Virus record (IMG/VR): IMGVR_UViG_2627853844_000004
Strand: one strand, 5' to 3'
Length of the DNA: 16,995 nt
Source: a virus
Lineage: Duplodnaviria; Heunggongvirae; Uroviricota; Caudoviricetes
Part shown: one piece after another, positions 2,334 to 16,995 of the stretch
Position numbering within the stretch: the stretch's first letter is position 1
Layout: each line of letters begins with the position of its first letter
The notes under the pieces: generated by a model
What the model saw: only the letters and a program-made list of their open reading frames with translations
What the model was told of the DNA's origin: nothing
Databases searched by the model: none
Translations under genes and position numbers: made by a program

Positions 2334-3077
2334 TTACTCCCTGACAGGGTTCGTAGGCCACTCAATATCAGGTGCAGTTGATGTATCAACACGGTTCAGC
2401 AACACCCGATATTTTTTCCAGGCTTCCAGCAATGAGGTTTCTTCCTCCGTTGCGATTTCCAGATCTACAGCATCCTGAAGTGGCGCAATATGCTCACTGG
2501 CTACCTGCATCAGGCTGTTTTTTGTTTCTTCCGCCTCCCGAATCCGGAACAGTTTTTCTGCTTCTGCATCTTTCACCCAGGCTGTACCGTTCCACTTCTG
2601 AAACTCCCCTTCCGGCGATAACCAGGTAACATTTTCCGGTAACGGACCGAGTTCAGAAATAAATAACGCGTCCCCTGACGCTACGTCATAAACCGTTTTA
2701 CCCCGATGATCTTCAACGAGATGCCACGATGACTCATCACTGTTGAAAACAGCCACGAAGCCAGCTGGAATAAGGGTGTTGCGCTGCTTATGCTCTATAA
2801 AGTAGGCATAAACACCCAGCAGCATTTTGGAATAACCGACACGGGCAGACTTCACCACATTCACCTCACGGATGTAGTCGCTGCCCATCGCATTCATGAT
2901 GGCCCGCTGAAAGGGCAGTGTTTCCCAGCGCCCTTCCTGGTATGCGGATTCTTTCGGGAGATAGTAATTAGCATCCGCCCATTCAACGGCGGTCTGTGGC
3001 TCCGGCCTGAACAGTGAGCGAAGCCCGGCGCGGACAAAATGCCGCAGCCTGTTAACCTGACTGTTCGATATATTCAC
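2334..3077 (-). pseudogene. In-frame deletion fusion: terminase large subunit (gpA) N-terminal 103 codons joined to Tfa C-terminal ~144 codons
   Basis: Residues 1-103 ([28 protein letters not shown]...[14 protein letters not shown]) match the lambda gpA N-terminus as I recall it. From residue 104 ([29 protein letters not shown]...[14 protein letters not shown]) it matches the lambda Tfa C-terminus. Junction lies between 2768 and 2769 (minus-strand ...cttatt|ccagctgg...). Corresponds to the K-12 aaaD/tfaD pseudogene pair by recollection. Confidence 0.85.
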
Positions 3078-3502
3078 TCAGCAACCCCGGTATCAGTTCA
3101 TCCAGCGCGGCTGCTTTGTTCATGGCTTTGATGATATCCCGTTTCAGGAAATCAACATGTCGGTTTTCCAGTTCCGGAAAACGCCGCTGCACCGACAGGG
3201 GGATCCCGTCGAGAATACTGGCAATTTCACCTGCGATCCGCGACAGCACGAAAGTACAGAATGCGGTTTCCACCACTTCAGCGGAGTCTCTGGCATTTTT
3301 CAGCTCCTGTGCATCGGCCTGCGCACGCGTAAGTCGATGGCGTTCGTACTCAATAGTCCCTGGCTGGAGATCTGTCTCGCTGGCCTGCAGCAGTTCTTCA
3401 ACCTCCCGGCGCAGCTTTTCGTTCTCAATTTCAGCATCCCTTTCGGCGGTGATGCTGCCAACTTACTGATTTAGTGTATGATGGTGTTTTTGAGGTGCTC
3501 CA

Positions 3503-3778
3503 GTGGCTTCTGTTTCTATCAGCTGTCCCTCCTGTTCAGCTACTGACGGGGTGGTGCGTAACGGCAAAAGCACCGCCGGACATCAGCGCTATCTCTGCTC
3601 TCACTGCCGTAAAACATGGCAACTGCAGTTCACTTACACCGCTTCTCAACCCGGTACGCACCAGAAAATCATTGATATGGCCATGAATGGCGTTGGATGC
3701 CGGGCAACAGCCCGCATTATGGGCGTTGGCCTCAACACGATTTTACGTCACTTAAAAAACTCAGGCCGCAGTCGGTAA
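3503..3778 (+). CDS. insA: IS1 InsA (transposition repressor)
   Basis: 91-aa [43 protein letters not shown]... with zinc-finger-like N-terminus typical of InsA. Confidence 0.95.
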
Positions 3779-4200
3779 CCTCGCGCATACAGCCGGGCAG
3801 TGACGTCATCGTCTGCGCGGAAATGGACGAACAGTGGGGCTATGTCGGGGCTAAATCGCGCCAGCGCTGGCTGTTTTACGCGTATGACAGTCTCCGGAAG
3901 ACGGTTGTTGCGCACGTATTCGGTGAACGCACTATGGCGACGCTGGGGCGTCTTATGAGCCTGCTGTCACCCTTTGACGTGGTGATATGGATGACGGATG
4001 GCTGGCCGCTGTATGAATCCCGCCTGAAGGGAAAGCTGCACGTAATCAGCAAGCGATATACGCAGCGAATTGAGCGGCATAACCTGAATCTGAGGCAGCA
4101 CCTGGCACGGCTGGGACGGAAGTCGCTGTCGTTCTCAAAATCGGTGGAGCTGCATGACAAAGTCATCGGGCATTATCTGAACATAAAACACTATCAATAA
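3697..4200 (+). CDS. insB: IS1 InsB frame (expressed as InsAB' transposase by -1 frameshift)
   Basis: 167-aa ORF in the -1 frame relative to insA. An A6C slippery run (aaaaaac, 3754-3760) lies in the overlap, which is the known IS1 frameshift motif. Confidence 0.9.
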
Positions 4201-4374
4201 GTTGGAGTCATTACCCCTTTCGGCATACCATTTTATGACGGCGGCAGAGTCATAAAGCACCTCATTACCCTTGCCACCGCCTCGCAGAACGGGCATTCCC
4301 TGTTCCTGCCAGTTCTGAATGGTACGGATACTCGCACCGAAAATGTCAGCCAGCTGCTTTTTGTTGACTTCCAT

Positions 4375-4610
4375 TGCACATTCCACGGACAAAAACAGAG
4401 AAAGGAAACGACAGAGGCCAAAAAGCTCGCTTTCAGCACCTGTCGTTTCCTTTCTTTTCAGGGGGTATTTTAAATAAATACATTAAGTTACGACGAAGAA
4501 GAACGGAAACACCTTAAACCGGAAAATTTTCATAAATAGCGAAAACCCGCGAGGTCGCCGCCCCGTAACCTGTCGGATCGCCGGAAAGGACCCACAAAAT
4601 GATAATAATT
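4375..4610 (-). other. Lambda-type cos site (cosQ-cosN-cosB); 12-nt cohesive-end sequence at 4552-4563
   Basis: Minus strand reads ...cgatccgacaggttacg GGGCGGCGACCT cgcgggttttcgctatttatgaaaattttccgg..., matching the lambda right-end/left-end junction and cohesive end as recalled. The region between cosN and the Nu1 start (cosB) is near-identical to lambda. Confidence 0.85.
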
Positions 4611-5613: not shown

Positions 5614-6024
5614 ATGGCTCAGGTTGCCATTTTTAAAGAAATATTCGATCAAGTGCGAAAAGATTTAAACTGTGAATTGTTTTATTCTGAACTAAAACGT
5701 CACAATGTCTCACATTATATTTACTATCTAGCCACAGATAATATTCACATTGTGTTAGAAAACGATAACACCGTGTTAATAAAAGGACTTAAAAAGGTTG
5801 TAAATGTTAAATTCTCAAGAAATACGCATCTTATAGAAACGTCCTATGATAGGTTGAAATCAAGAGAAATCACATTTCAGCAATACAGGGAAAATCTTGC
5901 TAAAGCAGGAGTTTTCCGATGGATTACAAATATCCACGAACATAAAAGATATTACTATACCTTTGATAATTCATTACTATTTACTGAGAGCATTCAGAAC
6001 ACTACACAAATCTTTCCACGCTAA
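5614..6024 (+). CDS. ybcV: Uncharacterised prophage protein, 136 aa (DUF1398 family by recollection)
   Basis: ORF track gives 177 aa from 5491. The ATG at 5614 ([11 protein letters not shown]...) has a GGAAGG Shine-Dalgarno about 9 nt upstream and gives 136 aa, the length I recall for YbcV. Stop codon taa at 6022-6024 abuts IS5. Confidence 0.65.
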
Positions 6025-7219
<1,195 letters not shown>

Positions 7220-7221
7220 CT

Positions 7222-7281
7222 AAAGCACTCGGTGTAAGCACTGATGACATCGTTGCTGTAGGTCTGGTTTACCAGTTCTAA
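7222..7281 (+). pseudogene. nmpC: 3'-terminal remnant (19 codons) of an outer-membrane porin gene
   Basis: Frame reads KALGVSTDDIVAVGLVYQF* directly after the IS5 right end. The ...VGLVYQF C-terminus is the conserved final beta-strand of OmpC/OmpF/NmpC-type porins. No porin body is present anywhere in the window. Confidence 0.75.
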
Positions 7282-7419
7282 TCTGATTACGAAAAAGATA
7301 TGTTGCGGGAGGCGTTGCCTCCCCAACATATAAGTGGCTCCCTCAAGCCACTTCCTTTAGAAGCACAACCTTGCTTCTAACTATATAAACCTTCTGTTAT
7401 ATATTACCCTTTATTTTTG

Positions 7420-7454
7420 GGGGCGTCTCAACGCCCCATTTTTAATAATTTTTA
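7420..7454 (+). terminator. Rho-independent terminator for the plus strand (porin gene 3' end)
   Basis: GGGGCGT (7420-7426), loop ctca, ACGCCCC (7431-7437), then atttttaataattttt. On the minus strand the hairpin is followed by an A-rich stretch, so it is not a minus-strand terminator. Confidence 0.6.
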
Positions 7455-7470
7455 GTAAACAATTGGCATA

Positions 7471-7854
7471 TTAATTAGAGTTATTAACAACGATATCCAT
7501 CTCTAACCGGATATCTAATGCCATTAACATCCCTTCAATTATGCCCTCAGCCTTCTGTAACCTTTTCCCGATATAACCATCAGAGCAGCAATGCTTACCT
7601 GCCAGTGACATGAATGTCATACCGACTACATAATAATCTACTAATAAATCGTGCAAATCGCTGTTGTTCTTTTTCAGACGGGCCATGCACCCGCAAATGA
7701 TCATCGCGTCATCGTCACAACATTGCGGGCGAGATTTTACTTTTGAAGTAATTAATCCCTTAAAACCGGCGGCAATGGACGACCAGGTCACATCTTCATG
7801 ATTATTAGCCGCCCACGCTCCCCAACGCTCAAGAACCATCTGAATATCACGCAT
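7471..7854 (-). CDS. quuD: Late-gene antiterminator Q (phage 82 type), 127 aa
   Basis: [29 protein letters not shown]...[18 protein letters not shown]... with a cysteine-rich zinc-binding segment. Length and position downstream of rusA/ylcG match K-12 QuuD by recollection. The ORF track start at 7869 is 5 codons further upstream. Confidence 0.75.
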
Positions 7855-7921
7855 CAACTTACTCCACAAAAATCAGACCAGAACGCCAATTACAAGCAAA
7901 AATCAACAAAACAGTATTAGT

Positions 7922-8062
7922 TGATTGTTATCTCTGACTTCATACTCCTGCTCCTGTCAGGGTTTTGGCGTAATTCTTCAGTATTCGGTAATCGGTCAAA
8001 ACAGAACCGGGGAAACGATATAAGCGCAGACGCCCCCAGCGGTGGCGAAGAAGTTCTGCCAT
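7922..8062 (-). CDS. ylcG: Small protein, 46 aa
   Basis: Hand translation of the minus strand from ATG at 8062 gives MAELLRHRWGRLRLYRFPGSVLTDYRILKNYAKTLTGAGV...*, 46 codons, starting 14 nt after the rusA stop. Below the ORF-track length cutoff. Symbol from recollection of a 46-aa gene between rusA and quuD. Confidence 0.5.
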
Positions 8063-8076
8063 ATTAAACTCAAACA

Positions 8077-8439
8077 TCATTCATTCCCCATTTCGGTGAT
8101 GGTCAGTTCCAGCCTCCCACCTTTGGTAACAGGCATCTTCACAACGCGGTAATCAACGACCTGAGCATCATCCAGCCAGAAACCTGCTTTAGTGAGTGCG
8201 TCAAAAGCGGCTTTTTGCAGATTATCCAGGTCACGGCGACGGCGATCCGGCATGTGGCACTCAATGCGGATTTTCACAGGCATAGCCAGGCCGATATCCA
8301 GCATTGCGTTTTTAATGATTCGGGCGACGTTATCGCGGTATGCCTGCCCCTCTGCGCTGACGTGCGTGCGCCCGCGATTATGGCGGTAATAGCGATTATT
8401 GCTCGGAGGCCAGGGTAATGTGATGCTGTAGGTATTCAC
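8077..8439 (-). CDS. rusA: Holliday junction resolvase RusA, 120 aa
   Basis: [54 protein letters not shown]...TITEMGNE matches RusA as recalled. Confidence 0.9.
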
Positions 8440-8726
8440 GCCTTAATAACCCCCTCTTTCAGCCAGATAACCTGTGTTCTCGCCATACCTTCCAGCGCGC
8501 ATTCTTTTGCATATCCAGCGTCAACAAAATGCGTGCGGCGGTCGATTTCGTCGTGGCAGGCAGAACATGCAATGGTGGCAATCAGGTCTGGCGGTTTCGT
8601 ACCGGTGCCGCACAATCCAGTCAGCCGGATATGTGCCAGTACAGACGTTTCAGGGTTGCCATTACATACGCCAGGGATTCTTACCTGGCATTCCCGACCA
8701 CGCGCTGCTTTTCTCAAATCAGCCAT
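8436..8726 (-). CDS. ybcO: Nin-region protein, 96 aa (DUF1364 family by recollection)
   Basis: ORF from [42 protein letters not shown]... Its stop overlaps the rusA start by 4 nt, suggesting translational coupling. The ORF track start at 8765 is 13 codons upstream. Confidence 0.7.
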
Positions 8727-8889
8727 GACTCCTCCTTGCTGCCAGTCGCAACCATTTTTTATCAACCAAGCTGGCGGTATATCCGAGCAGTGTTGGTATT
8801 TCGGATGGCTTCAGCTCAGGTTTACGCTTACGACGATTTGGTACTCTGTAGATGTGTCCGTTCATGACACGAATAAGCGGTGTAGCCAT
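8719..8889 (-). CDS. ninE: NinE-family protein, 56 aa
   Basis: Minus-strand ATG at 8889 preceded by [38 protein letters not shown]... The start shares one nucleotide with the ybcN stop (TAATG). Confidence 0.7.
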   Translation of the reverse strand: MATPLIRVMNGHIYRVPNRRKRKPELKPSEIPTLLGYTASLVDKKWLRLAARRSHG

Positions 8890-9344
8890 TACGCCTCCTG
8901 CTTGTCGCGCAGCAGCTGGAACTCGCAGCTCTGTGGAATAGTCAGGTGGCAACCAATATTCATCGCCCAGGCTTCAACCTTACACAGGAAGACATACATC
9001 TCTCCGGTATCAAGATCGGAGGTATGGCGTAACGACTGGATAGTGGTGATATCACCGGTTACGACATCAACCAGGTCTTTGGTTTCATAACCGAGATATG
9101 TGTGTTTGAGAGCATCTTTTACCCAAGCTGGAGTGGCGAACGTTTTACCCCTGCTGATGAGGTATTCACTGATTTCGCTGTACCACATGTGGCTGAGTGC
9201 ATTCTGGGAAAGACTGCGTTTCTCACGCCACGGTTTAAGCACCATGCGAAAGCATTTGCCCTCCTCCAGATAAGGCTGGATCTGCCGACCGATAGCGGTG
9301 AAGTTGCCGCGATGTAATTTGATGCCGTCTTGTGAGAGGTTCAC
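8889..9344 (-). CDS. ybcN: NinB-family recombination protein, 151 aa
   Basis: [58 protein letters not shown]... with GTG start at 9344 preceded by GGAGGGG. Position between ren/cargo and ninE matches lambda ninB. Confidence 0.75.
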
Positions 9345-9442
9345 GCTTCCCCTCCGCAGAGGTCAAACGCTAGATGCAAAGAATTGCAGGTGCATTTCTG
9401 CATCTGTGAAGGGAGAAGAGAGTTTGGATTGTATGTGCGCAT
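9341..9442 (-). CDS. ylcH: Small protein, 33 aa
   Basis: Hand translation from ATG at 9442 gives [38 protein letters not shown] Shine-Dalgarno about 5 nt upstream. Stop overlaps the ybcN GTG start (GTGA). Symbol from recollection of a 33-aa gene at this position. Confidence 0.45.
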
Positions 9443-9558
9443 AAACGTCCCCGTTTAGCGCAGAAGTCACCGGAGTTGTTCAGGCTCCGGTGACATAATT
9501 ATGCCGTGTTGATTTCCCAAAATCAAAATCGATAGAATTGCTCCTTCTTAAAACACTT

Positions 9559-10356
9559 TTACTCTCTGGAAGCTTTTCTTATCTCTCTTGGTGTTATATT
9601 AAAACGATTATGAAATCTTTCAGTAAAACGAGAAGGACACTTATAACCATTTTCTCTGGCAATCTCGCTTATAGGTTTTACCGTCGTTTGTATAGCAGAC
9701 AACGCATTATTTAACCTCACATCGTCCAGTATACTTTGGAAACTTACCCCCTCGCTTGCTAGACGGCGATGTAATGTAGAAACAGAAATGTAGAGATATC
9801 GAGCAACCTTGTTTGCTGTCCATTTTGTGCCGGGTTCGGATAGCAGCAGGTTATAACAACGACTTATCAATGATTGTTTACTATATGATAAAAGTAAATG
9901 ATTAACATGATTCACTCCTAACGAAAGTAGAACGCCCATTGCTAAGTGCTCCTGAATTTTAGTTGAGAAGCCTCGGGAAACAGATGTTTTTAGTTGCTCC
10001 CAACAATATATTAACTCAGGATTCTGAGGTAAAAAGAAACTTGTTTTGTTACGTATTTGATCAGTTACCGTATAAAGTTTTTGGAAACTCTCAATTAAAT
10101 CAATGGGTAAGTAAAGCATTTCTGCAAGATAAAGCCCTGCTTCAGGATAATTCTCAATATAAAATTCATAACCACAAGGAAATAATATTATTTGATTATT
10201 ATCAACAGTTAAAGTATGCGTCTCCCAATTGATAACTTTCTTTCCCTGACGGATACGACACAAAGCTGGCATAAGAGGCTTAACCCTATGAATCTCATGA
10301 TGTTTATGCATCCGTATTTCTTCGATCTTTAAGTTAGTCTTACCTCTTGCCAGCAT
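9559..10356 (-). CDS. ybcM: AraC-family transcriptional regulator, 265 aa
   Basis: C-terminal region ...[44 protein letters not shown]...[32 protein letters not shown] is a typical AraC helix-turn-helix pair. Visibly AT-rich codon usage. Confidence 0.8.
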
Positions 10357-10365
10357 ACTCTCACC

Positions 10366-10917
10366 CTACTTTATCTCATAAACTGGTGTTATCTCAGCGG
10401 TTGCGATTTTATTAGCATTAAGCATATAACCAACTAACGCTCCGCTGGAGTTAGAATCTACAGGAATCTTTTCAGTTTTTAGAGCCCATACTTTAAACTG
10501 GTAATGATGTGGTTTATCTCCTTTAGGAGGACATGCGCCACCAAACCCAGCATAGCCAAAATCATTTCGGCCTTGAACAGCACCAGTCGGCAGTTTTGTT
10601 CCATCACGTCTCCCTGCATCAACGGGCAAATATGTTACTGTTGCTGGAATATTAACAACAGTCCAATGCCACCAACCACTGCCTGTAGGTGCATCTGGAT
10701 CATATACAGTTACGGCAAAGCTTTTGGTACCTTCAGGAACACCAGACCAGGTTAATGAGGGCGATGTATTACCACCTTCACACCCAAATCCAGAAAAGAC
10801 ATGAGACGTTGTAAGTTGCTCTCCTGTTTTTATTTCATTACTAGTGACCTGAAATGCTGCAGCCTGCGCAGAAAATGTTATGAATGCCAATACAGTTGAA
10901 ACGATAAGTGTTTTCAT
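10366..10917 (-). CDS. ybcL: Secreted PEBP/RKIP-family protein, 183 aa
   Basis: N-terminal signal peptide MKTLIVSTVLAFITFSAQAAA. Mature region contains the PEBP-like ...YDPDAPTGSGWWHW... motif. AAGAGG Shine-Dalgarno 6 nt upstream of the ATG at 10917. Confidence 0.8.
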   Translation of the reverse strand: MKTLIVSTVLAFITFSAQAAAFQVTSNEIKTGEQLTTSHVFSGFGCEGGNTSPSLTWSGVPEGTKSFAVTVYDPDAPTGSGWWHWTVVNIPATVTYLPVDAGRRDGTKLPTGAVQGRNDFGYAGFGGACPPKGDKPHHYQFKVWALKTEKIPVDSNSSGALVGYMLNANKIATAEITPVYEIK

Positions 10918-11091
10918 AAAAACCTCTTTGTTATGACCTATCGTTATTTTATTTGATATTCCTTTATCTCATTATGCATAAAGGCGCAATGTTCATGCAA
11001 AAGCAATCACAATTGTACCCCCAACCCAATTATTTGCCACAATATACACAAAGCACATTGATACTATCTAAAAACTCTGCTTTATTATTAG

Positions 11092-11123
11092 TAACACCTA
11101 CGAAAGTCGGTGTTATTTTTTAA
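11092..11123 (+). terminator. Candidate rho-independent terminator on the plus strand
   Basis: taacacc (11092-11098), 10-nt loop, ggtgtta (11109-11115), followed by tttttt. No annotated plus-strand gene lies upstream; see findings. Confidence 0.4.
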
Positions 11124-11381
11124 CCTACCATTCAAAATACGTGACATACACCATTTTGCTCATAATAATTTGTCACGTATTTTCAGTATTTGAATCTGCG
11201 ACCAAGAGTTCTCACCTAACAAATGATTAAGATTGTATAGCTCATTTACTACCCCAATACAGCCGTACAAAACTCGCTTGTGGGAGCAAACAAAGTAATT
11301 ACCCATTAAGTTTCGTCAAAGATAATTAATTCTGTCTTGCACTTTATCACCATAGCATAACTTAAAATCCGAGATCATTAT

Positions 11382-12908
11382 TTAGAAATAAATCTCACCA
11401 TCAACCATATATTTGAGAGCACTTATCGCCTGCTGGGCGGATATTACTTTCATTAAAGGATAGTGTTTAAAAACAATGCCATTCATAAAATAGATATCAC
11501 AGGTTTTATTATCCGTATTAATTATGATTTTTTCGAATGTTTTATAGGCAAGTGTACGGCATAACTCTCGTCCATTTTTACTGGTTAAGTCAATAGCATA
11601 AAAATCACTGAATGAATTTACACCTTTACTCTTCAAAGTTTTCAATGATACCGAAGCCCTTCGTAATTCCTTATCTAATAGTCTTATTTTCTCTGCTATA
11701 GCGGTAACTTCAGGCGCGACAGACAATGCAACGATTAAATTATTAATTTTCATCTGAAGCTCAATAATTTTTAACTCTAAAGTTTCATTAGCATCTTTCT
11801 TGTTTTCAACTGGTTGAATTTTGCTACAATTAAAAAGCAATTCATTAATGATATTATAATCAACCAAATCTCTTTTTATTGATGGCCTGTCACATCGATG
11901 TAATCTTCTCATCGGACAAACATAATAGCCATGCAAACTTCCAGATACCGCATGAACAATCATGGTATTACCACAAGCCTCACACTTCATAACTGTTCGA
12001 AGTAGATTTATTAGCATAGGATTCTTGCTACTATTGCTAATACCAAAAGGTGCCAACCGAATTTCCTGTACAGCGTAAAACAAATCATCTGATATGACTC
12101 TGGGATAATAGCCAGCGATTTCACTTATCCCTTTCCCTCTTGCACGATATGAAGGTACGCAAATACCTATCAGAGCTTTATTCGCTAATAATTTTTCAAT
12201 TACAGAAGGTCCCCATGCACTTTCTTTTCCTGAGAAATTCTTTACAGCATGATCATTTAAATACTTGGCTATTGCATTCAATGAGCGCCTTTCCATCCTG
12301 AGTTTAAAAATTAGCTCAATAGTTTTCACCCTGTCGGGGTCTGGAACAAAAGCCGTTCTTTTGTCATCTAAGGAGAGCCATCTCGGACAAGACGCCGTCA
12401 TAATCGTACCTGATTCCAGTGCATCCTGCCGTTTTTTCTTCCATGATAATTTAACCCGACTTGACTTTATCTCGCTTTCTTCATTTGCCCTTTGTGCTAT
12501 AAGTATGGCTTTTATTAATGAATATGGCTCATTCAAAGAGTCAATATTATAGACTGTATTGTCGCAAAGAGTTATAACATCAATACCGTGATTCAAAATC
12601 AATTTCAGACGTTCAATCGCTTCACCGACTTTTTCTCTTGAAAGTCTGTCCAGACTTTCAACTAACAATGTAGTTCCTGGCAATATATAACCATGCTCTA
12701 TAGCATCTAAAAATTCCGAAAAAGCTCCTGATTGTGCATGCTTTCCTTTGAATGCACTTAATCCTAAATCTTCATATGTTATGGTATCAAGATAATAATC
12801 ACTATTTACCTTTAACCATTCAGCAATAAGTCTTCTCTGTCGGTTTAATGAGTCGCCAGACATCTGACCTGGTGATGAAAATCGCATATATGCTATGGCT
12901 TTTTTCAT
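11382..12908 (-). CDS. ybcK: Large serine recombinase, 508 aa
   Basis: N-terminus MKKAIAYMRFSSPGQ... carries the catalytic-serine motif context of resolvase/invertase-type recombinases, and the protein has the long C-terminal extension of large serine recombinases. Very AT-rich gene. Confidence 0.8.
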   Translation of the reverse strand: MKKAIAYMRFSSPGQMSGDSLNRQRRLIAEWLKVNSDYYLDTITYEDLGLSAFKGKHAQSGAFSEFLDAIEHGYILPGTTLLVESLDRLSREKVGEAIERLKLILNHGIDVITLCDNTVYNIDSLNEPYSLIKAILIAQRANEESEIKSSRVKLSWKKKRQDALESGTIMTASCPRWLSLDDKRTAFVPDPDRVKTIELIFKLRMERRSLNAIAKYLNDHAVKNFSGKESAWGPSVIEKLLANKALIGICVPSYRARGKGISEIAGYYPRVISDDLFYAVQEIRLAPFGISNSSKNPMLINLLRTVMKCEACGNTMIVHAVSGSLHGYYVCPMRRLHRCDRPSIKRDLVDYNIINELLFNCSKIQPVENKKDANETLELKIIELQMKINNLIVALSVAPEVTAIAEKIRLLDKELRRASVSLKTLKSKGVNSFSDFYAIDLTSKNGRELCRTLAYKTFEKIIINTDNKTCDIYFMNGIVFKHYPLMKVISAQQAISALKYMVDGEIYF

Positions 12909-13090
12909 GGTGACACCTGCTAACGTATGCTTTTATAAACCTTAGTGGTGGGATATAATTTTTGTTTATTTTTTATTTAAAAAGACAATTAAGGTCACAT
13001 TATCTTGAATATACAACAATAATCGTATTGCAATTTTCTTACGCCATAATCTTGAAAGCACAAAAGAATACATAAAAAATAAAGACATTA

Positions 13091-13132
13091 ACAAAAAGCA
13101 TAAAACGAGGCTCATATAAATATAAGAGCCTC
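13091..13132 (-). terminator. Rho-independent terminator of emrE
   Basis: gaggctc (13107-13113) and gagcctc (13126-13132) form a 7-bp stem. On the minus strand it is followed by gttttatgctttttgt. Lies about 30 nt downstream of the emrE stop. Confidence 0.6.
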
Positions 13133-13162
13133 CATATTTTAGTCGTTTAGAAACAAATTATT

Positions 13163-13495
13163 TTAATGTGGTGTGCTTCGTGACAATAAATTAATAATCA
13201 ACACACCGGCACAAATCAACATCATGCCTATAATGGCTGGCAGGTCCAGCCGTTGGCCGAAAAATCCCCATGACAGTAAGCTAATCAGGACAATACCGAC
13301 TCCTGACCAGATAGCATAAGCAATCCCTGTAGGAATATAAGCCAGCGTCTGAGCTAATAACCAGAATGATGCACAATAACAAATAATTGTACCAACAGAT
13401 GGCCATAACCGTGTAAAACCTTCTGAAAACTTCATTAAGGTTGTACCAATGACCTCTGCAAGTATTGCACCACCAAGATAAATATAAGGGTTCAT
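13163..13495 (-). CDS. emrE: Small multidrug resistance (SMR) efflux transporter, 110 aa
   Basis: From the ATG at 13495: MNPYIYLGGAILAEVIGTTLMKFSEGFTRLWPSVGTIICYCASFWLLAQTLAYIPTGIAYAIWSGVGIVLISLLSWGFFGQRLDLPAIIGMMLICAGVLIINLLSRSTPH, four hydrophobic helices, matching EmrE as recalled. The ORF track extends 18 codons upstream. Confidence 0.9.
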   Translation of the reverse strand: MNPYIYLGGAILAEVIGTTLMKFSEGFTRLWPSVGTIICYCASFWLLAQTLAYIPTGIAYAIWSGVGIVLISLLSWGFFGQRLDLPAIIGMMLICAGVLIINLLSRSTPH

Positions 13496-13805
13496 AGCAT
13501 ATTCTTTCCTGTTCAAACTGGAGAGAATTGTACTACAGTTTGAACTCAACTCACCTGTTTCATCATTGTGTTCCCATTGATGTTCTTTTATATACCCTCA
13601 ATACCCGTTTCATCGCGGCACTCTGGCGACACTCCTTAAAAATCAGATTCGTGCTCACCTTTCCTTCCCATTCTTCTCTGGTAGCGAACCGGTAATACAC
13701 CGTTCGCCAGACCTTACCATCAACGACCAGGATTCCTGCCCGCGCCATTTTAGCCGCAGCCTGATTTATGCTGGTTGATCCTACCCACGTAATATGGACA
13801 CAGGC

Positions 13806-14672
13806 CTAAGCGAGGTTCTTGTTTTCAAATTGTTCCGGACTGAGGCCGCCACACCAACTGTGCCGCCGCCACCGATTGTAATCACATTCGATATAATTAA
13901 ACACCGTTGCCCGCATTATTTCCCGGCTGATAAAGTGTTCTCCATGGATACATTCCACTTTCAGCGAATGAAAGAAGCTTTCCACGCAGGCATTATCGTA
14001 GCAGCAACCTTTTGCGCTCATACTTCCACGCAGATTATGCCGCTTCAGTTGCGCCTGATAATCTGCTGAACAGTACTGGCCTCCACGGTCCGTGTGAACG
14101 ATAACGTTCCGGGGCCTCTTACGCCGCCACAGCGCCATCTGCAGGGCATCGCAGGCCAGTTGCGCCGTCATGCGTGGCGACATTGACCAGCCAATAACGG
14201 CACGTGACCACAGGTCAATGACCACTGCCAGATACAGCCAGCCTTCATCTGTACGTAAGTACGTGATGTCTCCTGCCCACTTCTGGTTCGGGCCACTGGC
14301 GTAAAAATCCTGCTCCAACAGATTTTCTGACACAGGCAGGCCGTGTGCGCGGTAGCTGACCGGGCTGAACTTCCGGGAGGCCTTTGCCCTCAGTCCCTGA
14401 CGGCGCAGGCTTGCCGCCACGGTTTTTACGTTAAAGGGGTAACCCTGAGCACGCAGTTCATCCGTCAGGCGTGGGGCACCGTAACGCTGTTTTGACCGGG
14501 TAAAAGCCGCGAGGACAACGCTGTCGCAGTGTTGGCGGAACTGCTGACGCGTGCTTATCCTTGTCCGCCGCTGACACCACGTATACCAGCCGCTGCGGGC
14601 CACCCGGAGCACGCGGCACATTGCTTTGATGCTGAACTCAGCCTGATGTTTTTCAATAAAGACATACTTCAT
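13806..14672 (-). CDS. insF: IS3 OrfB (DDE transposase catalytic domain; expressed as OrfAB by -1 frameshift)
   Basis: 288-aa ORF overlapping orfA by 4 nt. Contains the integrase-core pattern ...[33 protein letters not shown]... Confidence 0.95.
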
Positions 14673-14977
14673 TTCAGGCGCTTCGCGAAGTATGTCGCGG
14701 CCTTTTGGAGGATAGCCAGCTCTTCATCCCGTTCTGCCAGCTGGCGTTTGAGACGTGCAATCTCGGTAGACATCTCCAGTTCACGTTCAGAAGACGTCTG
14801 CTGATTTTGCTGTTTACTGCGCCAGTTGTAGAGTTGTGATTCATACAGGCTGAGTTCACGGGCTGCGGCAGTAACACCGATGCGTTCAGCAAGCTTCAGG
14901 GCTTCACTGCGAAATTCAGGCGAATGCTGTTTACGGGGTTTTTTACTGGTTGATACTGTTTTTGTCATGTGAGTCAC
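14669..14977 (-). CDS. insE: IS3 OrfA (helix-turn-helix transposase N-terminal protein)
   Basis: 102-aa [63 protein letters not shown]... with leucine-zipper-like C-terminus. Confidence 0.95.
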
Positions 14978-15122
14978 CTCTGACTGAGAGTTTACTCACT
15001 TAGCCGCGTGTCCACTATTGCTGGGTAAGATCAGATTACGGTTGCGCCTGTTACCGCGGCAACGTCCTGTGCACAGAAGCTCTTATGCGTCCCCAGGTAA
15101 TGAATAATTGCCTCTTTGCCCG

Positions 15123-15433
15123 TCATACACTTGCTCCTTTCAGTCCGAACTTAGCTTTAATTTCTGCGATCTTCGCCAGAGCCTGTGCACGATTTAGAGG
15201 TCTACCGCCCATAACAGGAAGTTGTTTTACTGGTTCAGGTATCGTCTCACCACGGTTAATTCGCGCTGTCATACAGGTCAGTTCATCGGCAGCCTTGCGC
15301 CGTAATTCCGCGTCAGCCAGCGCATTGGCCCGCATGTTCTGGTACAAGTTGGTAACCAACCAGTAATGCGCGTTCGATTTCCACGGATAAGACTCTGCAT
15401 CCGGATACAGGCCACGCTTCCGGCAATACTCGT
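15123..15433 (-). pseudogene. peaD: C-terminal remnant (~103 codons) of a lambda P-type replication protein
   Basis: Minus-strand frame reads ...[105 protein letters not shown], matching the lambda P C-terminus as recalled. No N-terminal part and no O gene are present. Confidence 0.8.
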
Positions 15434-15712
15434 ACCTCCCGGGATTTCATGAAATTCCGGCTCGGTGGTTTCGAGGCAATAAAATCGGCTTACATGGCCC
15501 AGGTGCAGTACAGCATGTGGGTGACGCGAAAAGATGCCTGGTACTTTGCCAACTATGACCCGCGCATGAAGCGTGAAGGCCTGCATTATGTCGTGATTGA
15601 GCGGAATGAAAAGTACATGGCGAGTTTTGACGAGATGGTGCCGGAGTTCATCGAAAAAATGGACGAGGCACTGGCTGAAATTGGTTTTGTATTTGGGGAG
15701 CAATGGCGATGA
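15434..15712 (+). pseudogene. exoD: C-terminal remnant (~92 codons) of lambda-type exonuclease Exo
   Basis: Plus-strand frame ...[92 protein letters not shown] matches the lambda Exo C-terminus as recalled. Homology begins abruptly near 15434. Confidence 0.8.
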
Positions 15713-15831
15713 CGCATCCTCACGATAATATCCGGGTACCTCACAACACGGCAAGCCTGCATTGCGGCGCTTCAGTCTCCGCTGCATACTGTCCAGGTGA
15801 GCGCGGGTGATGGCATAACAGAGGAAAGAAA

Positions 15832-16995
15832 ATGTCACTCTTCCGCAGAAATGAAATATGGTATGCCTCGTATTCGCTCCCGGGCGGGAAACGAATTAAG
15901 GAATCTCTTGGCACAAAGGACAAACGGCAAGCTCAGGAGTTGCACGACAAGCGAAAAGCAGAACTCTGGCGAGTAGAAAAGCTAGGGGATTTACCTGATG
16001 TCACTTTTGAAGAGGCCTGCCTAAGATGGCTTGAGGAAAAAGCTGATAAAAAATCTCTCGATTCAGATAAAAGCCGGATTGAGTTCTGGCTTGAACATTT
16101 TGAGGGTATAAGGCTTAAAGATATCTCGGAGGCAAAGATTTACTCTGCTGTAAGCAGAATGCATAACAGAAAGACGAAAGAAATATGGAAACAGAAAGTT
16201 CAGGCCGCCATCAGGAAAGGTAAAGAACTGCCTGTTTATGAACCAAAGCCAGTATCAACTCAGACAAAGGCAAAGCATCTTGCCATGATAAAGGCCATTC
16301 TCCGTGCTGCAGAACGCGACTGGAAGTGGCTGGAAAAAGCGCCTGTCATCAAGATACCAGCGGTCAGAAACAAGCGAGTCAGATGGCTGGAAAAGGAGGA
16401 AGCAAAACGCCTTATTGATGAGTGCCCCGAACCACTGAAATCTGTCGTCAAGTTTGCGCTGGCAACTGGTCTGAGAAAGTCGAACATCATAAATCTGGAA
16501 TGGCAACAAATCGACATGCAGCGACGAGTTGCCTGGGTGAATCCAGAAGAGAGCAAATCAAACCGCGCCATTGGTGTGGCGCTGAACGATACCGCCTGTA
16601 AAGTGTTGCGTGATCAAATAGGCAAGCATCACAAATGGGTGTTTGTACATACCAAGGCGGCTAAGCGAGCAGATGGAACATCAACGCCTGCGGTCAGGAA
16701 GATGCGCATCGACAGCAAGACATCATGGCTATCAGCTTGTCGTCGTGCAGGAATTGAAGATTTCCGTTTCCATGACCTCAGACACACCTGGGCAAGCTGG
16801 CTGATTCAGTCAGGCGTCCCATTATCAGTGCTTCAGGAAATGGGCGGATGGGAGTCCATAGAAATGGTTCGTAGGTATGCTCACCTTGCGCCTAATCATT
16901 TGACAGAGCATGCGAGGAAAATAGACGACATTTTTGGTGATAATGTCCCAAATATGTCCCACTCTGAAATTATGGAGGATATAAAGAAGGCGTAA
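15832..16995 (+). CDS. intD: Tyrosine site-specific integrase, complete 387 aa
   Basis: Complete ORF with AGGAAAG Shine-Dalgarno. C-terminal catalytic region ...[44 protein letters not shown] contains the R...HxxR...Y signature of tyrosine recombinases. Symbol from recollection of the 387-aa DLP12 integrase; a closely related paralog (intS) cannot be excluded by memory alone. Confidence 0.85.

Follow-up and report, generated by a model that had tools for sequence, protein, structure and literature searches.

What does a perfect inverted repeat do in the gap between the recombinase gene ybcK and the ybcLM genes of a lambdoid prophage? The 16,995 nucleotides analysed here, called the window throughout, come from an E. 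coli K-12-type strain and represent its cryptic prophage DLP12 in reverse-strand orientation. Window positions (w) 6021-16995 are 100% identical to NC_000913.3 575789-564815, and chromosomal positions were obtained as 581810 - w, which places the repeat at NC_000913.3 570627-570676. The surrounding genes lie on the minus strand of the window: emrE (~13163-13495), ylcJ (12966-13115), ybcK (11382-12908), ybcL (10366-10917) and ybcM (9559-10356). YbcK is a large serine recombinase with Resolvase, Recombinase and Zn_ribbon_recom domains and a match to a PHROG integrase family, YbcL is a periplasmic PEBP/RKIP-like protein whose gene opens the ybcL-to-quuD transcription unit, and YbcM is a regulator of the AraC family. 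The E. coli K-12 annotation has no feature in the ybcK-ybcL gap. Complete lambdoid phages, PhiR68_2 among them, carry the order ren-emrE-ybcK-ybcL-ybcM-ybcN-ninE-...-Q and, in addition, a tyrosine integrase of their own; the emrE, ybcK and ybcLM genes are therefore nin-region cargo and not an integration module.

The window departs from MG1655 at two places. The 5' part of nmpC together with essD, rrrD, rzpD and borD is absent beside IS5 (junction near 6021-6024), and nohD is split by ~768 bp of extra DNA (3448-4214) with a target duplication of ~10 bp and the look of an IS1-like element. The sole above-threshold Rfam match in the window is IS009 (RF02111, 227.8 bits; w 2377-2575, minus strand).

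The repeat consists of two 13-bp arms, AAAATACGTGACA (11134-11146) and TGTCACGTATTTT (11171-11183), which are exact reverse complements of each other and flank a 24-bp asymmetric, A+T-rich spacer, TACACCATTTTGCTCATAATAATT (11147-11170). The left arm is an A-tract followed by the stem sequence ACGTGACA, and the right arm is the stem followed by a T-tract. The dyad ends sharply, with the next outward pair (C/C) and the next inward pair (T/T) both unpaired, and within the inner 24 bp 3 of 12 pairs are complementary. The repeat lies 198 bp from the ybcK stop at 11382 and 216 bp from the ybcL ATG at 10917, in an intergenic spacer of 464 bp with a G+C content of 33%. Its likelihood under chance was assessed with dinucleotide-preserving shuffles, in which perfect inverted repeats of at least 13 bp with a gap of 3-60 bp were counted. 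Of 2000 shuffled versions of the intergenic spacer one contained such a repeat (p ~0.0005). With the whole window as template the count was 16 in 1000, rising to 26 in 1000 for shuffling within 500-bp blocks (p ~0.02). The repeat is locally non-random within the window and unlikely to have arisen there by chance; by extrapolation from the same shuffles, a few comparable repeats are expected by chance in a 4.6-Mb genome. An earlier note on this DNA had described a perfect 13-bp pair around a 24-bp spacer, about 200 bp past ybcK and upstream of ybcL, and had held such a pair to be unlikely by chance in a spacer of this size; the arms, their placement and the low chance expectation are all confirmed by these measurements.

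That note had suggested three roles for the repeat: a binding site for the recombinase YbcK, a binding site for a regulator such as YbcM, or an RNA hairpin. The last of these agrees with the predicted folding of the region. Both RNA strands read AAAAU-ACGUGACA-(24 nt)-UGUCACGU-AUUUU, so that each arm is made up of a 5-nt A/T tract and an 8-bp stem, and either strand yields RNA with a U-tract signature. Folding gave -14.9 kcal/mol for the plus strand (z -3.5) and -18.9 kcal/mol for the minus strand (z -3.7) relative to shuffled controls, and the folding check proposed in the note is thus compatible with a hairpin. The core stem of 8-9 bp with 4 G-C pairs (50% G+C), extended to 13 bp when the A-U pairs are included, agrees with the stable, G+C-containing stems of ~5-14 bp that intrinsic terminators have. 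The plus-strand RNA leaves an open loop of 24 nt, while the minus-strand RNA, which is the sense strand of ybcK, is predicted to divide this loop by a further inner helix of 6 bp, G-U pairs included, so that an apical loop of 7 nt remains. The tails are AUUUUGAAU on the minus strand and AUUUUCAGUAUUU on the plus strand; each has four consecutive U and scores 3.3-3.4, against 4.3 for a neighbouring hairpin at 11092. In a scan for a stem plus U-tail across 10900-13300, where absolute scores were negative everywhere and the ranking alone is meaningful, the repeat was the top single-hairpin candidate on the sense strand 3' of ybcK (d = -27.1), about level with the canonical-looking emrE terminator (d = -29.6). 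A separate terminator scan of the region did not call the repeat.

The position of this hairpin coincides with a boundary between transcripts. An RNA-seq compendium (PMC10392735) defines the operons emrE-ylcJ-ybcK and ybcL-to-quuD, and ybcK and ybcL are not co-transcribed (r = 0.32). The hairpin form, the stable fold and the transcript boundary between ybcK and ybcL together favour a terminator, and our leading reading, which we hold tentatively and with somewhat less than even confidence, is that the repeat is a weak terminator hairpin of the bidirectional type, placed after ybcK at a module boundary. The Term-seq tables examined list no RNA 3' end at NC_000913.3 570620-570679, the compendium tables hold no transcript end within the ybcK-ybcL gap, and the supplement of an in vitro run-off study (ROSE) has no entry for the site. 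H-NS silences ybcK and Rho ends its transcripts early, at 568940, beyond which the gene is barely transcribed; a 3' end at the repeat would therefore be difficult to see.

Several features count against a terminator at this position. The 24-nt loop is far above the loops typical of intrinsic terminators and the U-tract is limited to four U. Rho alone could clear the untranslated gap of ~460 nt, and phages that have ybcK and lack the segment carrying the repeat get by without the hairpin.

The same stretch can also be read as a promoter. The left arm contributes GTGACA, which is followed after 17 bp by AATAAT (putative match at 11141-11169, plus strand, antisense to the ybcK 3' end; 10/12 hexamer positions), and an antisense or spurious sigma-70 promoter here would send RNA from ~11176 into the 3' end of ybcK and would normally be silenced by H-NS. 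In genomic SELEX both the RpoD holoenzyme and H-NS bind the ybcK-ybcL spacer, and a terminator-like site on the plus strand at 11426-11440 could end such an RNA. Against this, promoter-like matches in DNA this rich in A+T are no commoner than chance (4 against an expected 3.6), the SELEX authors placed their promoter elsewhere in the spacer, the interval contains no transcript end in the compendium tables examined, and a promoter leaves the perfect second arm unexplained. We consider an antisense promoter improbable. A protein-coding explanation was also rejected: the open reading frames that run over the repeat (48 aa on the minus strand, 56 aa on the plus strand) match nothing in Pfam or PHROG, and tblastn found relatives solely in the three phage records that also carry this segment. 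The 48-aa frame contains two polymorphisms, both read as non-synonymous, and the region was treated as non-coding.

A second hairpin stands 13 bp to the left of the repeat. Located at 11092-11121 and followed on the plus strand by TTTTTT after a stem with a GAAA loop, it ranks first among the terminator-like sites of 10900-13300 and would act on plus-strand transcripts only, opposite in direction to ybcK and ybcL. The majority allele at this hairpin, 11095T, gives a G-U pair that is kept solely in the plus-strand RNA. The hairpin opposes every annotated gene in this part of the prophage, and no plus-strand gene or RNA is known for it.

Binding by YbcM was suggested by the earlier note on account of the nearby gene, and published maps place the YbcM site elsewhere. 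Gao et al. 2021 (PMC8464067) report one YbcM ChIP-exo site at ybcL, NC_000913.2 570015-570048, which with a signal/noise of 357 is their strongest. The shift of 777 bp between NC_000913.2 and NC_000913.3 was fixed from distances given in the sigma-54 paper together with the version 3 annotation, and the site then falls at w 10985-11018 (minus strand), more than 115 bp away from the repeat. Were the coordinates those of version 3, the site would be at 11762-11795 inside ybcK, again off the repeat. The same ChIP-exo list has no site at the repeat, even with sites reported down to a signal/noise of 4. On the ybcL strand a Cappable-seq start lies at U00096.2 570094 (w 10939) with the -10 hexamer TAAAAT, and the YbcM site, at -79 to -46 from this start, fits the normal position of an activator. 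No sense-strand Cappable-seq start is found between U00096.2 568538 and 570094, and the repeat is therefore not a ybcL promoter. The ybcL promoter proposed from SELEX, GTGGCA-17-TACAAT (11040-11012), differs from the Cappable-seq start at 10939.

ybcLM is thus actually controlled from the YbcM site and the start site, neither of them more than 110 bp from the start codon of ybcL. At loci that have emrE-ybcL-ybcM and lack ybcK, the region upstream of ybcL is kept from w 11072 onwards, with the YbcM site and the start inside it and the repeat outside. Because both elements lie within a segment that is conserved without the repeat, the repeat is neither a YbcM operator nor a part of the ybcL promoter. 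An operator for some other regulator of ybcLM, or a distal looping site, would be at a plausible distance, as the repeat is 195-244 bp upstream of the ybcL start site and AraC-type loops are known over such distances. The PhoB and sigma-54 maps, on the other hand, have their sites elsewhere, the sole local YbcM site is not on the repeat, and the repeat lies outside the conserved upstream region. YbcM itself is largely refuted, and an operator of any kind is the least probable of the explanations that we weighed. The arms contain TGTCAC, and a PhoB box was accordingly tried and rejected: the PhoB ChIP site, at 569907, is within ybcK and off the repeat. A sigma-54 site was rejected likewise; it falls within emrE.

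The distribution of the repeat was then followed in several genomes and in ~120 loci from IMG/VR. A ybcK 95-98% identical to that of K-12 is present in at least 45 phage contigs, which have neither the repeat nor any other spaced repeat downstream. In these contigs BLAST homology to K-12 stops at w 11341, with weaker resemblance by eye to ~11310, and restarts only at ~9527, past ybcM, with different cargo in between. Sister phages provide an example in which ybcK is followed by a convergent hydrolase gene of 347 aa. The slot 3' of ybcK is therefore variable: it holds the repeat here and other cargo, including the convergent hydrolase gene, in other phages. The reciprocal arrangement, emrE-ybcL-ybcM without ybcK, is found in a metagenomic viral contig (L123, 3500-4550) and in the chromosome of E. 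coli ETEC1749 (L132; NZ_CP122712.1, 1642-3501). At both loci homology on the emrE side stops at w 13156 and homology on the ybcL side starts at 11072, which leaves the repeat absent; relative to such loci K-12 has an additional 2.08-kb ylcJ-ybcK segment (w 13155-11073). In ETEC1749 the emrE-ybcL-ybcM block adjoins fliE, with no recognisable prophage and a decayed IS200/IS605 element alongside.

The repeat and the neighbouring hairpin thus sit between two homology breaks, in an orphan joint segment of ~240 bp (11073-11310): on one side the homology that goes with ybcK gives out at ~11310-11341, and on the other the homology that goes with ybcL begins at 11072. Both therefore belong neither to the conserved flank of ybcK nor to the conserved region upstream of ybcL, and the repeat is not conserved together with ybcK or with ybcL. 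The mosaic comprises three pieces that can be told apart, namely ybcK, the joint with the repeat, and ybcLM, and the emrE-ybcL-ybcM block occurs independently of the recombinase gene. A further homology break at w 11219, in one IMG/VR contig (L098, ~560-640), is no more than an IS5 insertion. The inserted sequence includes GGAAGGTGCGAATAAGCAG, which we take to be an IS5 end; the insertion is 36 bp from the repeat and leaves it intact. Insertion of the 2.08-kb ylcJ-ybcK segment between emrE and ybcL by YbcK itself was also considered, but the junctions lack symmetric half-sites and do not resemble the arms.

These comparisons bear directly on the suggestion that the repeat is the recognition site of YbcK with a layout like that of attP. 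In its favour, YbcK has all three domains of large serine recombinases and matches a PHROG integrase family, the site is 198 bp from the end of its gene, and the repeat spans 50 bp in total with symmetric outer arms, as for zinc-ribbon domains, around an asymmetric core for strand exchange. In length and in the symmetry of the outer arms the repeat presumably resembles the attP sites of phiC31 and Bxb1, and a repeat of similar geometry in the same window, the cosB-like one at 4399-4455, is presumably bound by protein. The recombinase nonetheless travels without the repeat in the at least 45 contigs described above, and five loci with YbcK homologues of 41-61% identity (Atlantibacter, Yersinia, Kluyvera, Citrobacter and Pantoea) have no analogous repeat downstream. 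The search for the same 13-mer that the earlier note had proposed gave no partner site: the window has no second copy at fewer than two mismatches (6 near-matches, 6.3 expected), and neither IMG/VR nor a set of 5,426 complete E. coli genomes contains split or hybrid sites of the attL/attR kind. Single-arm matches elsewhere in IMG/VR share at most 6 of the 12 inner bases, which is the level of chance, and an apparent half-site proved to be one contig split in storage. The central dinucleotide would be GC, which is palindromic and gives no polarity, and the phages integrate by their own tyrosine integrase. A YbcK site is very doubtful on this evidence. Lower still we rate its extended form, in which K-12-type phages of the DLP12 kind would carry a second, serine-integrase module beside the tyrosine integrase and sister phages would have lost or replaced the site. 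This is the one reading that would be of wider interest, YbcK having no known substrate. Of the three roles suggested at the outset, the RNA hairpin is thus compatible with the tests, whereas the YbcK site and the YbcM site both run against them.

Homologues of YbcK at four loci (41-56% identity) are found in varied mobile contexts. The Pantoea homologue is in a lambdoid prophage between the replication genes and Q, i.e. in the DLP12 slot; that of Yersinia is at the ogr end of a P2-like prophage with an autotransporter gene adjoining; that of Kluyvera is beside dinI and umuC; and that of Citrobacter is beside shufflon-like and TraD genes.

The main rival to a terminator, and our second choice, is that the repeat has no function: it would be a neutral relic within a recombination joint that has spread with a successful prophage. 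We regard this as possible, if on the unlikely side. When segment 11073-11320 was used as a query, full-length and single-copy matches were found in 675 of 5,426 complete E. coli genomes, all of them in the 95-100% identity bands and with 98.4% the lowest identity among the matches listed. The segment is also present in three phage records, and no other context was found for it. It is therefore confined to one near-clonal arrangement, that of the K-12 type, and both neighbouring genes occur elsewhere without the repeat, as expected for a relic. The left arm is unchanged in 40/40 repeat-bearing IMG/VR contigs and in all of the ~15 haplotypes, and the arm spacing is 24 bp in 40/40 IMG/VR occurrences. 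Across the 464-bp spacer the haplotypes differ at 19 sites, all of them outside the 50-bp repeat, where ~2 would be expected (P ~0.12); with this P value and haplotypes that are near-clonal, conservation tests are powerless and constraint on the repeat is not evidenced. The earlier note had proposed that absence of the repeat from otherwise identical orthologous regions would speak against selective constraint, and this is found in spirit, both flanking genes being present elsewhere without it, while the DNA that does bear the repeat is too clonal to show constraint. Also consistent with a relic, Rfam scans of the spacer at gathering and E-value thresholds gave no family, with best matches at the level of chance (E >= 1.2), and neither a transcript end nor protein binding is reported at the repeat in the data sets examined.

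Three points weigh on the other side. A perfect 13-bp pair is rare by chance in the window (p ~0.02) and in the spacer (p ~0.0005), the A4/T4 outer ends are an added coincidence for a relic and are explained by a terminator, and the repeat lies exactly at a transcript boundary. Correction of quasi-palindromes by template switching is a mutational route in E. coli, and in a variant of the relic explanation the perfection of the arms possibly arose in this way. The repeat might alternatively have marked the ends of a mobile element, which was rejected: there is one copy per genome, and the flanks, CATTC and CAGTA, form no direct repeat.

Returning to the terminator, which we prefer, we infer termination at the hairpin and the history of the segment from the observed anatomy, fold stability, mosaic position and transcript boundary. 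Within the nin region of a DLP12-type lambdoid prophage, the hairpin would define where the emrE-ylcJ-ybcK unit stops at its 3' side: RNA polymerase that has passed through ybcK would pause and be released there, and polymerase coming from the opposite side would be stopped less efficiently. In this way ybcK would be insulated from ybcLM, a unit under separate control. Together with the plus-strand terminator-like hairpin at 11092-11121, the repeat may form a back-to-back pair that is the relic of a former convergent gene junction. Convergent junctions do occur after ybcK in sister phages, and the recombination that imported ybcLM may have left the pair behind. If the hairpin terminates transcription, it would be another case of cargo-unit insulation in lambdoid prophages and a small addition to the K-12 annotation.

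How does the repeat compare with known systems? With the attP sites of large serine integrases (phiC31, Bxb1 and A118) it presumably shares a length of ~50 bp, symmetric outer arms, an asymmetric core and a position near the recombinase gene. Unlike them, it does not travel with the recombinase, leaves no recombinant junctions, has a palindromic centre and has no known attB. A further comparison is with the second perfect inverted repeat of the window, with 16-bp arms AGAAAGGAAACGACAG (4399-4414) and CTGTCGTTTCCTTTCT (4440-4455) around a 25-bp spacer. It lies 25-81 bp upstream of nohD, a homologue of the terminase gene Nu1 that starts at w 4374, and presumably matches the lambda left end with the terminase R sites of cosB. 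The two repeats are alike in having a long perfect dyad and a similar spacer in the same prophage, and this geometry may thus serve paired protein binding; the ybcK-ybcL repeat differs in having no sequence similarity to the R sites and no candidate binding protein.

The likeness to bidirectional intrinsic terminators is in the A-tract/stem/T-tract dyad, in the U that follow the hairpin on both strands, in the intergenic location and in the transcript boundary. The differences are the loop of 24 nt against ~3-8 nt, a stem with 50% G+C, a tail of four U, and flanking genes that are codirectional and not converging. Units made up of promoter, gene and terminator, termed morons, were reportedly described by Hendrix and colleagues. 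Compared with lambdoid moron and nin terminators such as lambda tR2-tR4, the candidate terminator segment is unlike in being missing from sister phages with the same ybcK. It is like them in its place, in the nin region within the interval homologous to ren-Q and at the end of the emrE-ylcJ-ybcK cargo, and in being followed by a next unit, ybcLM, with its own promoter and regulator.
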